A stretch of DNA of 64,000 nucleotides from Crocinitomix sp. (GTDB lineage: Bacteria; Bacteroidota; Bacteroidia; Flavobacteriales_D; Crocinitomicaceae). Of the stretch, positions 1 through 64,000 are shown piece after piece. The notes under the pieces were generated by a model. That model saw only the letters and a program-made list of their open reading frames with translations. It was not told where the DNA came from and ran no database searches. The position numbers were made by a program, and so were the translations under genes. The DNA lies in NCBI GenBank assembly GCA_044361315.1, contig JBIKJA010000012.1:380-64379 (forward strand), in the 5' to 3' direction. Each line of letters begins with the position of its first letter. Position 1 is the stretch's first letter.

Positions 1-121
1 TCGATTGGATTGCTTAGTTGAAATGGGATATTCTTAAATTAGCATAGACATCTGCAGATAATTTGAGGTGTTTTATCAAAAATTTGCTTGATAGTTAAGT
101 TAAATTTTGAAGCAGAAAGCC

Positions 122-208
122 GCAAAAGGGATGATAGTGGCAGCTCCCAGATAATGCCGACGTTGGTTGGGATTGTCTGGGACTATAACGAACAGCCCGG
201 TGGTTTGT
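122..208 (+). repeat. Structured intergenic element, copy E0 (Flavo-1-like; last hairpin missing)
   Basis: GCAAAAGGGAT...GTGGCAGCTC[hairpin 145-155/172-182]...ACGAACAGCCCG...TTTGT. 117-132 is identical to 41111-41126, and GGACTATAACGAACAGCCCG resembles GGACTTGTAACGGACAGCCTG in the copy at 17940. Confidence 0.65.
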
Positions 209-272
209 GGTTGACGCACGCAACCTCTAAGCATTTGCCCAAAAGAAAAATAGAATACAAACCGTTAATTTA

Positions 273-17789: not shown

Positions 17790-17900
17790 TGTCGTTCATG
17801 TCGAGAGCTCGTCTCTCAATATGAACGACAACCACCCAACAATAACTGCAGCCACTCAACAACCACCCAAAAAAAACGGTAACCACCCAACCGCAGCGGC
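17790..17900. repeat. Hairpin followed by three AACCACCCAA direct repeats
   Basis: TGTCGTTCAT(17790-99)/ATGAACGACA(17821-30) perfect stem with inner GAGAG/CTCTC; AACCACCCAA at 17830, 17861 and 17881. Confidence 0.75.
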
Positions 17901-17939
17901 AACAAACAAAACGATTAAAATTTAAAATGCCGATTCCCC

Positions 17940-18068
17940 GCGTTAAGGATGGAAGAGAAAAGCCCACAGTACGCAATTTAATTGGGGACGAGGACTTGTA
18001 ACGGACAGCCTGCCCCTGACGATTACTTAACGACTTTTCGGTCTGGACGGAATCGTCAGGGAACGCCC
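17940..18068 (+). ncRNA. Structured intergenic element, copy E1 (Flavo-1 RNA motif-like)
   Basis: GCGTT..AACGC closing stem, AGG..CCT pair, ACGGACAGCCTG, 11-bp stem 18014-24/18051-61, 3' GCCC. The Flavo-1 resemblance is from memory and needs cmscan. Confidence 0.6.
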
Positions 18069-18105
18069 TAAAAAAAAATAAAATTATTGTAGCCTAAAAC
18101 AGCGA

Positions 18106-18813
18106 TTAATTTACTGATTGCAACACGCCATCTTTCCAAATTCCTTTTTCGGTGACACCAATAGCGTATTTCATTGTGCCTTTCCCAGTGATAGCGCCAT
18201 CTAACCATTGTCCAGTGTATTTGTCAGCATTAGGCCAAACAATTGTACCTTTTCCATTTTCATTATCGTTGATCCAAGTACCTGTATAGGTTGTCCCATC
18301 CGCCCAAGTCATACTTCCTTTGCCATTTTTAGCATCGTTGCTCCAAGCACCAGTATATGTGTCGCCACCGCTATATTTGAGTGTGCCTTTGCCTTGTTGT
18401 TTATCTGCAAACCATTCACCTTCATAGGTACTGCCATCTGCCCAATTGAACTTACCTTTTCCTTGGCGAGCGTTATTTACCCAATTGCCCTCGTAACGGT
18501 TTCCATTTGCCCACTTCAATTCACCAAATCCTTCCATGACACCATTTTTCCAATTACCCATGTATTTGTCGCCGTTTGTCCAGTTCATTGTTCCGTACCC
18601 TACAATATAACCATCCACCCAATCACCGGTGTAAGAATCGCCTGCAACCCAAATCATGGTGCCTTTTCCATTTGGTTGACCATCAACTAATTGTCCACAG
18701 TATTTATCACCAGAATCGTAATAAAGGGTATCGCCTGCTAGAGAGGTGAATGAAAAAGTAAATAAAAAGAATAAGATAGTTAAAGGGCCTATTTTGAATA
18801 AATTAGTGTTCAT
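18106..18813 (-). CDS. Secreted MORN-repeat protein
   Basis: Signal peptide then ~8 tandem 23-aa Y.G.W..G...G.G repeats; ATG at 18813 preferred. Confidence 0.85.
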   Translation of the reverse strand: MNTNLFKIGPLTILFFLFTFSFTSLAGDTLYYDSGDKYCGQLVDGQPNGKGTMIWVAGDSYTGDWVDGYIVGYGTMNWTNGDKYMGNWKNGVMEGFGELKWANGNRYEGNWVNNARQGKGKFNWADGSTYEGEWFADKQQGKGTLKYSGGDTYTGAWSNDAKNGKGSMTWADGTTYTGTWINDNENGKGTIVWPNADKYTGQWLDGAITGKGTMKYAIGVTEKGIWKDGVLQSVN

Positions 18814-18883
18814 TTTGATTAGTTTTTTACACAAATTTAAACTATTTTGTTGGGATTTTGACCTTATTTTTTTTTAAGATTAT

Positions 18884-41058: not shown

Positions 41059-41115
41059 AAGCCGAACAGCCGATTTAAAGTTTAGGCTCTAAAAGTATAT
41101 TAATGCACTCAAGCC

Positions 41116-41227
41116 GCAAAAGGGATATGAGTGGAGCTCTTTTTTATCATAAAAAAAGCGGGAACGATAGCCCGACCTCCTTTCTTACCCAATGTTTCAA
41201 CATGGGGTAAGAAAGGAGGATTTGCCC
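41116..41227 (+). ncRNA. Structured intergenic element, copy E4 (Flavo-1-like)
   Basis: GCAAA..TTTGC closing stem, GGG..CCC pair, GAGCTC[T6/A-tract hairpin]AGCG, AGCCCGACC, perfect 13-bp stem 41178-90/41205-17, 3' GCCC. Confidence 0.65.
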
Positions 41228-62911: not shown

Positions 62912-63037
62912 GGGCGCCCCCAGACATTCCGTCCCCAACGAGTTGGGAATCGGGATGGCTGGGTCAGGCTCGCCGGCCTCGCTTTATTGCCGAAATCGGA
63001 CAATAAGAGCTCAAACAATGCCTCTGATCCTTGGCGC
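62912..63037 (-). ncRNA. Structured intergenic element, copy E2 (Flavo-1-like)
   Basis: Minus strand: GCGCC AAGGAT...TTGTTTGAGCTC TTATTG..CAATAA AGCGAG...AGCCTG ACCCAG..CTGGG GGCGCCC. Confidence 0.65.
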
Positions 63038-63124: not shown

Positions 63125-63688
63125 TTATTGATTAATTTGAAATTTATCCTTGTTCCAATTTAAAGGATTGTTTGCAATATAGGTCTGTATCCGCTGAAAT
63201 GACTCGTTATCGCGAATAATATGGTCGTGAAAACGCGATTGCCAGGCAAAATCTGCATGAATTTTTCGGGCGTTTATTGTCACAATTCGTTTGAATTGGT
63301 TAATAATGGAACCAATCGAATTGGGTTTCCATTTTTCGTTTTTTCCACCATTTTTTTTAATGGGTGGGGTTGGGGTAGAGACGCCCAAATTGGGCGTCTC
63401 TAAGGGCGGGGGGATGGATTCATTTATAATTAATATTCCATGAAAATGGTTAGGCATTACCACAAAATTACCCAATTCCACAAATGGGAAATGGGCGGGT
63501 ATTTCCATCCAAAATTTTTCGGCCAATTGTCCTGTTTCATTCAAATGCATTTCGTTGCCTATAATTTCACCAAATAAATGTGCCCTGTTATGGGTGCAAA
63601 TGGTTATAAAATAGGCGCCTTTACTACTATAATCCCAATTTTGAAATCGGGCAGATGGTATCCGATATTTATTTTTGAATTTATCCAT
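63125..63688 (-). mobile_element. REP-associated tyrosine (Y1, HUH) transposase, RAYT / IS200-like
   Basis: YFITICT, VMPNHFHGI (HUH), WQSRFHDHIIR, YIANNP catalytic Tyr. Confidence 0.9.
63375..63402 (+). repeat. GTAG-type REP palindrome inside the RAYT coding sequence
   Basis: GTAG start; TAGAGACGCCCAA-A-TTGGGCGTCTCTA perfect 13-bp arms; encodes LETPNLGVST. Confidence 0.85.
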
Positions 63689-63930: not shown

Positions 63931-64000
63931 GCGTTAGTGGTTGTACTGTTGTTTGAGTTCCTTTCGTCAAGAAAGAACGAGCAGGGAAAACACGTTAAAA
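63931..64000 (+). ncRNA. Structured intergenic element, copy E3 (5' part; cut by the window edge)
   Basis: GCGTT AGTGGT...TTGTTTGAGTTC CTTTC..GAAAG AACGAG...AACACG; shares TTGTTTGAGYTC with E2. Confidence 0.55.

Follow-up and report, generated by a model that had tools for sequence, protein, structure and literature searches.

Flavo-1 (Rfam RF01705; Weinberg et al. 2010, PMC2864571) is an RNA motif that counts among the more abundant bacterial entries of the small RNA (sRNA) families of Rfam, where it is without known function (PMC9029176). Other structured intergenic sequences to which it can be compared are the REP/BIME/REPIN repeats of Proteobacteria with their REP-associated tyrosine transposases (RAYT), known from E. 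coli (TnpA-REP, PDB 4ER8) and from the Pseudomonas REPINs, as well as the ERIC/IRU, BOX/RUP and Correia repeats and the folded ends of IS200/IS605 elements. The present analysis deals with five structured intergenic elements in a stretch of 64,000 nucleotides (nt) from Crocinitomix sp., contig JBIKJA010000012.1, which is called the window in the following (G000:C16:380-64379, where G000 is the source genome of 3.27 Mb). These elements are an extended, three-way-junction branch of the known Flavo-1 motif and not a new kind of element. The family would probably be best understood as a REP/BIME-like, structure-dependent interspersed repeat, which moves slowly in this organism and in bursts elsewhere, and whose core is conserved at resident sites.

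All copies follow a common order of parts. A closing stem of 5 base pairs (bp), which starts with GC and has the formula GCNNN/NNNGC, is followed by one unpaired A, a 3-bp helix ending in G (P1), a bulged A and a 2-bp helix (P1b); further inside come a 3x3 internal loop, another 2-bp helix (P2), a second loop and a variable hairpin. The two 3x3 loops between P1, P1b and P2 are purine-rich. On the 3' side, the return strands lead to AGC plus the partner of the 3-bp helix and a G, after which a second variable hairpin, usually present, is stacked on the closing stem. The closing stem is then completed by its 3' strand, after which come CC and an A-rich run. Over 103 copies, the flank profile reads TTTY / GCRWW A RGG AU ... 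WWYGC CC AAAWAA, of which GC-CC-AAAWAA is nearly invariant. A tRNA-like reading, considered for the G1-C pair and the CCA after the stem, found no support, there being no tRNA or RNase P-type match in Rfam. The window copies, the parts of copy 2, on which the original prediction of this family had centred, and a gene lying between copies 4 and 5 are as follows (window coordinates).

122..240, + strand: copy 1; closing stem GCAAA/TTTGC, P1 GGG/CCC, hairpin 1, AGCCCG, weak hairpin 2, GCCC and A-rich tail
17940..18068, + strand: copy 2; full element, from the closing stem through GCCC
17940..17944, + strand: copy 2, closing stem, 5' strand GCGTT, with its partner AACGC at 18062-18066
17946..17956, + strand: copy 2, 5' side of the core; P1 AGG, bulged A, P1b TG, loop GAA, P2 GA
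17962..17999, + strand: copy 2, hairpin 1; base conserved, tip variable and partly decayed
18001..18012, + strand: copy 2, 3' side of the core (the "AGCCYG" box); P2' AC, G, loop GA, P1b' CA, G, P1' CCT, G
18013..18061, + strand: copy 2, hairpin 2; variable sequence, stacks directly on the 3' strand of the closing stem
18062..18077, + strand: copy 2, closing stem 3' strand AACGC, CC and A-rich tail; identical in the nearest relative, G013
41116..41227, + strand: copy 3; closing stem GCAAA/TTTGC, P1 GGG/CCC, hairpin 1 of T/A runs, 18-bp hairpin 2
62912..63037, - strand: copy 4; closing stem GCGCC/GGCGC, P1 AGG/CCT
63125..63688, - strand: open reading frame (ORF) of 187 amino acids (aa) resembling a RAYT-type (Y1/HUH) transposase, bracketed by copies 4 and 5
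63931..64000, continuing to about 64027 past the window end, + strand: copy 5; closing stem GCGTT/AACGC, P1 GTG/CAC, no hairpin 2

The original prediction had placed five copies at these coordinates and strands, which stand, except that copy 1, for which 208 had been given as the end, reaches to 240 when hairpin 2 and the closing stem are included. Copy 5 does start at 63931 on the + strand; of the parts ascribed to it, the AGCCYG box is replaced by ACACG and the second of the two hairpins is missing. The pairings named for the closing stem (GCGTT/AACGC, GCAAA/TTTGC, GCGCC/GGCGC) and for the next helix (AGG/CCT, GGG/CCC, GTG/CAC) all pair as stated. The covariation claimed for the helices is upheld by three counts. 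RNAalifold applied to 19 copies of G000 predicts 14 pairs, 10 of which have changed on both sides with pairing kept. In a 42-copy alignment with a specified 12-pair structure, 98% of the cells pair, compared with 28-46% when the partners are slid, and none of 500 shuffles attains the observed pairing, the 42 copies having been chosen in part by a descriptor that demands pairing. The third count used an independent set of 61 further copies, which were detected with the covariance model but lie outside the set it was built from, and which were aligned by sequence only. Of its 693 cells, 651 pair (versus 38-44% when slid), and most positions show several pair types. The closing stem exists in at least 12 distinct Watson-Crick versions genome-wide, and its pairs (5-9/181-185 of alignment A2) are 100% paired, with double-sided changes in four of the five.

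A covariance model made from the 42 copies (R1) matches four of the five window copies with E = 3e-15 to 6e-11, namely copy 1 at C16:497-625 (E = 1.2e-12), copy 2 (79.4 bits, E = 2.7e-15), copy 3 (E = 1.6e-13) and copy 4 (E = 5.6e-11); copy 5 is not returned by this search. Single-sequence folding is modest, with z = -2.9, -1.6, -5.6, -2.8 and +0.1 for copies 1 to 5. As the energies of copies 2 and 5 are unremarkable, the support for the structure is comparative and not thermodynamic.

The original prediction had named Flavo-1 as the matching family. At gathering thresholds, Rfam yields no match in the window. At relaxed thresholds, Flavo-1 is recognized in copy 3 (34.1 bits over 41108-41181) and copy 2 (25.4 bits over 17932-18019), the cut-off being 42, and nothing is obtained for the other three window copies. 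Elsewhere in G000, four loci score above the cut-off (42.1-64.7 bits) and about 20 just under it. Copy 3 is aligned by cmscan to all 76 positions of the Flavo-1 model, and the 5' side of the copy 2 core maps to Flavo-1 consensus positions. The seed alignment of Weinberg et al. 2010 (Additional file 5) holds the same subtype, GCGUUAGGGAU; it has rows starting GCGUUAGGGAUA and ending AUAGCCCGG, the subtype being written also as GCGUUAGGGAUA...AUAGCCCG, and examples of its rows are 'GCGUUAGGGAUA.GUAGU.GGUUA...UAUAGCCCGG' and 'GCGUGAGGGAUU.GUAGC'. On the strength of the sub-threshold window matches, the four passing genome copies and the seed subtype, this match holds at the level of the family. 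With Flavo-1 the elements share P1 (xxG/Cxx), the bulged A, P1b, the 3x3 loop, P2, the second loop and a hairpin of variable length, as well as the conserved GAU...AGYGG...AGC, with helices P1, P1b and P2 backed by covariation. The taxon range is also the same, the closest protein homologs being named Crocinitomix sp. The present elements go beyond the Rfam model, which extends no further than AGCCCGA, takes the 5' GCGUUA for unpaired flanking sequence and is devoid of the covarying closing stem, hairpin 2 and the GCCC-AAA tail, which together make up the three-way junction. Since the Rfam model omits it, the closing stem recognized in the original prediction is a real addition to the published model, and the model extended by closing stem, hairpin 2 and tail detects copies that the Rfam model misses.

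R1 finds 102 matches in G000 at E < 1e-3, and a nhmmer scan, which is free of the candidate filter of the R1 tool, agrees on 98 of 103 hits. Hand-written regular-expression and base-pair descriptors were too noisy (172 hits compared with 114 in the reversed genome); a later descriptor gave 2473 hits against 1886, and recovered only two of the five window copies, so that such descriptors were replaced by the covariance model and nhmmer. Of 121 Flavobacteriales genomes, 39 contain R1-type elements, which are thereby represented in 23 of 62 genera. The approximately 100 copies of G000 are intergenic. With gene context taken from crude ORF calls, 29 copies lie in convergent, 15 in divergent and 47 in co-directional spacers, the latter comprising 20 in sense and 27 in antisense orientation. 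Convergent spacers hold 32% of the copies versus 17% of all spacers and divergent ones 16% versus 24%, while 59% of the spacers genome-wide are co-directional. There is, hence, no orientation preference relative to transcription and an about twofold excess at convergent gene ends. The mixture of contexts and orientations does not fit a riboswitch or a gene-specific cis-regulator. Element strand and local GC skew (13/13 and 8/6) show no link, the skew being noisy in these contigs.

Two variants of the element were encountered in G000. About 10 copies (for instance G000:C16:133130-133257, C1:4581-4708 and C10:39528-39655) have a shorter stem and a conserved 128-nt interior that carries …GCGGCAGCTTG…GACCAGCGGAAAC…AGCG; their outer helices are as in standard copies, they close with ACC/GGT or GCC/GGC, and they often lie head to head with a standard copy. 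Three other copies (G000:C13:223857-224034, C22:108368-108543 and C11:36809-36942) share an insert of about 50 nt (TTAGTTCGAWWWATAATT...TTCTCATGAATTCGCTNNGCTCAT), always placed right after the bulged A of the core; this nested small insert seems to target the element. The hairpin modules themselves had been considered as independent mobile palindromes, which was rejected, as they are found almost only within elements.

Close neighbours obey a marked orientation bias. All eight full-length pairs less than 1 kb apart in G000 are head to head, that is, with their 5' ends facing, across spacers of 11, 21, 29, 58, 165, 248, 734 and 886 nt. The head-to-head arrangement is absent among pairs 1-7 kb apart, of which eight are tail to tail and a single one has both copies in the same orientation. 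A strict rule by which copies within 7 kb are always opposite is weakened to a strong bias when nhmmer fragments are added (about 4-5 same-orientation versus about 17 opposite pairs below 7 kb). Arenibacter sp. 6A1 shows the same tendency among 150 scored candidates: nine pairs separated by less than 1.5 kb are head to head, two are tail to tail and none has the same orientation; between 1.5 and 7 kb the corresponding numbers are 4, 11 and 1, and beyond 7 kb about half of the pairs have the same orientation.

This arrangement bears on the current Rfam label 'Gene; sRNA', according to which the copies would be a family of independently transcribed small RNA genes. The covarying structure with its conserved unpaired nucleotides and the Rfam entry itself speak in their favour. 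However, the flank profile of the 103 copies contains no promoter box (TAnnTTTG-type, -7/-33) at a fixed distance, and neither a U-tract nor a terminator follows the element in either direction, the 3' flank being A-rich. Four of the eight head-to-head pairs have spacers of 11-58 nt, which leaves no room for two promoters; in particular, two promoters do not fit into the 11-29 nt between the closest facing 5' ends. Together with about 100 diverged copies per genome, the turnover of sites and the near-identical bursts in Arenibacter described below, this makes sRNA genes the least supported of the three rival explanations considered here, and one to which we would give hardly any credence. The present data fit an interspersed repeat better than the Rfam label.

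The sites of the elements are not fixed. In G013, which is 83-94% identical to G000 in this region, copies 2 and 4 are found at the same sites, and it is only in this closest relative that the sites of copies 2, 3 and 4/5 are occupied. At the copy 2 site of the congeners G004 and G006, where the flanking genes are 73-80% identical, the element and the adjacent 242-aa gene are both missing, and the upstream gene is instead followed by an ordinary hairpin-plus-T terminator. Five congeners (G004, G006, G008, G011 and G012) have a copy 3 spacer that is 64-113 nt shorter and holds an ordinary terminator; these spacers, like those at the copy 2 site, are too diverged for insertion boundaries to be read base by base. 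The copy 4/5 region, beyond a transaldolase-like gene, has no counterpart in those congeners. Fixed orthologous positions across species had been proposed as the check on mobility, and this check came out against fixity within the genus.

Copy 4 is kept in G013 (locus L023, 64.7 bits) and in a relative from a metagenome, with a RAYT of 92% identity (locus L113). Copy 5 is missing from both, which share a 95-nt segment where G000 has about 330 nt, and the insert of G000 starts exactly at the 3' end of copy 5, that is, at the foot of the closing stem. Copy 5 was gained after the split of G000 and G013. The sequence TTTTTTTGGG, which is the complement of CCCAAAAAAA, is already present in the empty alleles; therefore, the CCAAA tail may be a target sequence or microhomology and not part of the moving unit. 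This junction is a single case, and the other junction does not lie at the 5' end of the element. Alleles without copy 4 or copy 5 were looked for in four lake metagenomes, but none of the reads or contigs bypasses either copy, the contigs ending at the repeat.

The strongest evidence for present or recent mobility comes from Arenibacter sp. 6A1, in which at least 133 of the 150 scored candidates are matches. Twenty copies taken at random are near-identical over about 90 nt, have unrelated flanks and show no target duplication; identity drops sharply before GCGTT at the 5' end and after GCCCAAA at the 3' end. This burst is the signature of a recent amplification. A ATTGNTTATTGTTNATTG motif is seen 10-35 nt upstream of about half of the near-identical Arenibacter copies (loci L137-L156 and L076) and either extends the element on its 5' side or constitutes a second module.

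Several further observations were made around the resident copies. The first approximately 200 nt of the window and the 5' half of copy 1 with its 5' flank are duplicated near the start of contig C12 (window 1-240 compared with G000:C12:1-413, the element part at C12:285-413). Similarity stops inside the element directly after AGYCCGG, and the second hairpin differs, so that a duplication or conversion boundary lies inside the repeat. The spacer 5' of copy 2 (window 17800-17935) consists of degenerate repeats of CAACCACCCAAC, for which the G013 counterpart has a clearer 20-nt tandem ATGAACGCCAACCACCCAAC; before these repeats there is a small hairpin without T-run, the upstream gene having no ordinary terminator. 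The 242-aa ORF next to copy 2 (window 18106-18834, - strand) occurs together with this copy in G000 and G013, both being missing at the G004 junction, while other congeners carry different inserts of 0.8-6 kb at its site, which therefore is a variable hotspot between two conserved genes. The copy 4 ortholog at L113:2245-2391 holds a 147-nt insertion between core GCGAGGCC and GGCGAGCC, the rest being intact. Contigs of G013 (C486, C382 and others) end exactly at elements, for example both contigs that flank the copy 3 site.

One particular strand of the element is the folded one. In 35 of 39 copies, the more stable fold is that of the sense strand and not of its complement. When G-U pairing is disallowed, isolated mismatches are G.T in 62 cases versus A.C in 31 (p = 0.002), and purine-purine mismatches outnumber pyrimidine-pyrimidine ones by 103 to 19; the conserved helices of the 61 independent copies contain 27 G.T and 11 A.C. 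From the types of mismatch and the stability of the fold it follows that one strand, either as RNA or as single-stranded DNA, is the folded species.

Resident copies have, furthermore, not diverged evenly. Copy 2 of G000 and its G013 ortholog agree at 66 of 70 positions of closing stem, core and tail (18 of 20 for the AGCCYG box), compared with 62% in the tip of hairpin 1, which is replaced, 68% in that of hairpin 2, 68% in the upstream spacer and 83-89% in the flanking coding DNA. In copy 4, G000 and the relative with the 92%-identical RAYT do not differ over the first 66 nt. Conserved cores with diverged tips mean that resident cores are under purifying selection or otherwise protected, and purifying selection argues for some retained function. 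Families of hairpin tips recur in either hairpin position and hardly ever outside elements, which suggests exchange between copies.

Such a function could be sought in the messenger RNA (mRNA), where the elements would act as cis-acting RNA modules, that is, as 3'-end protectors or processing sites, in the way the REPs of E. coli stabilize upstream mRNA. Host use of this kind would explain the conserved cores, as seen between orthologs, and would agree with the strand-specific fold and its G.A-rich loops. The enrichment at convergent gene ends points in the same direction, as does the finding that the copy 2 and copy 3 sites have an ordinary terminator in relatives and here an element and no terminator. 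In a relative, metatranscriptome contigs, which lack strand information and break off within the element, extend from the upstream gene into copy 3; hence, the element can be transcribed, though carry-over of DNA is possible. Against such modules stand the co-directional spacers, where 27 antisense copies face 20 sense ones, so that many copies would be transcribed as the strand that does not fold, and also the absence of a U-tract in either direction. In the transcriptome of F. psychrophilum (PMC9723704), Flavo-1 matches lie sense, antisense and in many cases outside transcribed regions. As a general explanation of the family, cis-acting RNA modules are, hence, rather improbable.

The enzyme that would move such elements might be sought next to copies 4 and 5. 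The 187-aa ORF between them matches NCBIfam NF047646 'REP-associated tyrosine transposase' with E = 2e-14 and 53.7 bits, below the cut-off of 80, and has no match in Pfam. The sole match in the PDB is 4ER8, the E. coli TnpA-REP, aligned across the HUH and Tyr motifs, and among thousands of homologs many are named RayT (JGI). Copy 4 lies 88 nt downstream of this ORF on the same strand, and copy 5 lies 243 nt upstream on the opposite strand.

If the elements were REPs in the strict sense, they would be substrates of this RAYT, which after binding to the folded strand would cleave it at the foot of the closing stem (near YGC/CC) and spread copies in trans. Apart from the RAYT-like nature of the ORF, such a role is suggested by its bracketing by two inverted copies, whose 5' ends point toward the gene in the classical REP-RAYT-REP layout. 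The same bracketing is found at a RAYT of 48% identity in Arenibacter sp. 6A1 (locus L076), where one flank passes the Flavo-1 cut-off with 45 bits, and it is this genome that also shows the recent burst of elements. Insertion without target duplication would suit an HUH enzyme. Co-occurrence of Flavo-1 and RAYT across the 121 genomes is weak (odds ratio 2.6, p = 0.039, uncorrected for phylogeny). Yet, 79 of 80 RAYT loci in public genomes have no R1 match within 1.5 kb, and 20 further Flavobacteriales RAYT loci, 14 of them in Flavo-1-positive genomes, have neither a Flavo-1 nor an R1 match. Flanking does not track the relatedness of the RAYT, since a 68%-identical one (locus L033) has no flanking element while a 48%-identical one does, and the best-scoring RAYT of Arenibacter is not flanked. 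Neither are the other four or five RAYT paralogs of G000, one of which has a different palindrome of its own. No RAYT is found even at E <= 1e-3 in the congener G004, which is 99% complete and has at least 24 elements, and 16 of 30 Flavo-1-positive genomes have no RAYT at E <= 1e-10. The palindrome carried by the RAYT ORFs of this family is of the GTAG type and does not resemble Flavo-1, and copy 5, the upstream flank of the RAYT, is a recent arrival that is missing in the two closest relatives. As head-to-head doublets are the normal close arrangement of the elements, a gene landing in the spacer of a doublet gives the same picture. Mobilization by this RAYT is, therefore, unlikely, and the 187-aa ORF is regarded as a neighbour and doubtful partner of the repeat family.

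The palindromes associated with these genes deserve separate mention. A near-perfect palindrome, GTAGAGACGCCCAAATTGGGCGTCTCTA, occupies window 63375-63405 in the linker between the HUH and Tyr motifs of the ORF. Homologous RAYT genes have GTAGAGACGC....GCGTCTCTAC with a variable centre at the same place, and the palindrome looks more conserved than the peptide encoded there. That the GTAGAGACGC palindrome is a dispersed REP family in G000 was rejected, as only two copies exist, both within RAYT ORFs. A RAYT paralog at G000:C17:69700-70900, interrupted by one in-frame stop, has on either side the different palindrome GGAGACGTTGCGGTGCAACGTCT and then short tandem repeats.

Taken together, the original prediction that the family is a dispersed selfish or structural element and not a single sRNA or riboswitch is borne out by the approximately 100 copies, their orientation independent of genes and the lack of a promoter motif, and further by head-to-head pairs 11-29 nt apart, sites that are not fixed in the genus and the burst in Arenibacter. 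For a REP/BIME-like interspersed repeat, which is the probable reading, the following scenario is proposed. Elements spread and are lost at the DNA level, in this lineage about as slowly as the genus has diverged and elsewhere in recent bursts. One particular strand would fold as a single-stranded nucleic acid, and a protein would recognize the conserved junction and loops; those copies that keep the fold would be the ones propagated or retained. Fold-dependent propagation or retention would explain the covariation between copies, the conserved resident core and the freely changing tips. Insertion would occur without target duplication, beside a pyrimidine-rich 5' flank and a CCAAA-type 3' flank, in the style of HUH-type single-strand transposition.

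Some observations weigh against this scenario. The RAYT is a doubtful candidate for the mobilizing enzyme. Copy 5 came with about 235 nt of other DNA, and no clean pair of empty and filled sites with both junctions defined was obtained. G000 has no near-identical copies, the best pair being 88% identical and within a larger duplicated segment, and the median best match (identity times coverage) being 65%; there is, therefore, no sign of current movement in G000. The census in Arenibacter covers 150 scored candidates, and its counts are lower bounds. Transcription may run into copy 3, as the metatranscriptome contigs of the relative indicate, and the conserved orthologous core and the purine-rich loops typical of RNA fit a host-selected function of RNA or DNA equally well. 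The data fit both purely selfish elements and elements that also serve the host.

Among the known repeats, the REP/BIME/REPIN sequences come close in several respects, namely in their high-copy intergenic occurrence with enrichment at convergent gene ends, in inverted doublets, in the conservation of structure rather than sequence and in the absence of target duplication; a RAYT-like gene is, moreover, bracketed by two inverted copies in the window and in Arenibacter, though at none of 99 other RAYT loci. Unlike REPs, which are simple 20-40-nt hairpins with a 5' GTAG, the present elements are branched and 80-190 nt long, and GTAG is not conserved across their subfamilies; also unlike the REP-RAYT system, the presence of RAYT is only weakly correlated with that of elements, a congener having many copies and no RAYT. 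With the MITE-like ERIC/IRU, pneumococcal BOX/RUP and Neisseria Correia repeats the family has in common a size of about 100-150 nt, the ability to fold, the intergenic position, frequent co-transcription, variation between strains and host effects that are unknown or secondary. The divergence of Flavo-1 is, however, far deeper than that of ERIC, BOX or Correia repeats and is accompanied by compensatory changes. Elements of the MITE type (miniature inverted-repeat transposable elements) possess terminal inverted repeats and target-site duplications, neither of which is present in the 20 near-identical Arenibacter copies. Strand-specific folded ends, insertion without target duplication and a short fixed motif adjoining the insertion are in common with the ends of IS200/IS605 elements and with their non-autonomous derivatives, the PATEs; here, it is CCAAA/TTTGG that abuts the element and that, in one case (copy 5), pre-exists in the empty alleles. 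Unlike IS200/IS605, the element has one closed junction in place of two subterminal hairpins, and no IS200/IS605 transposase or TnpB is linked to the copies.

From these comparisons, a more specific proposal can be put forward, albeit tentatively and as a possibility of lower probability than the general reading. Flavo-1, which has been classed as a candidate small RNA for 15 years, might constitute a distinct class of structure-dependent mobile DNA, in which a branched three-way junction would move as a folded single strand, without target duplication, to sites beside CCAAA/TTTGG. This would produce head-to-head doublets and, over a few kb, alternating orientation, and the core would then be selected at resident sites, be it through host use or through an addiction-like dependence. 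The enzyme could be of the Y1/HUH type, either from a subclade of RAYT or from a group that has so far escaped recognition.

If Flavo-1 is an interspersed repeat and not a gene, hundreds of loci in each genome receive a wrong label from annotation pipelines. Such repeats also break metagenome and short-read assemblies. The burst in Arenibacter, which is a cultured strain, the head-to-head rule and a breakpoint lying exactly at the foot of the closing stem provide handles on how the elements spread and why they are conserved.

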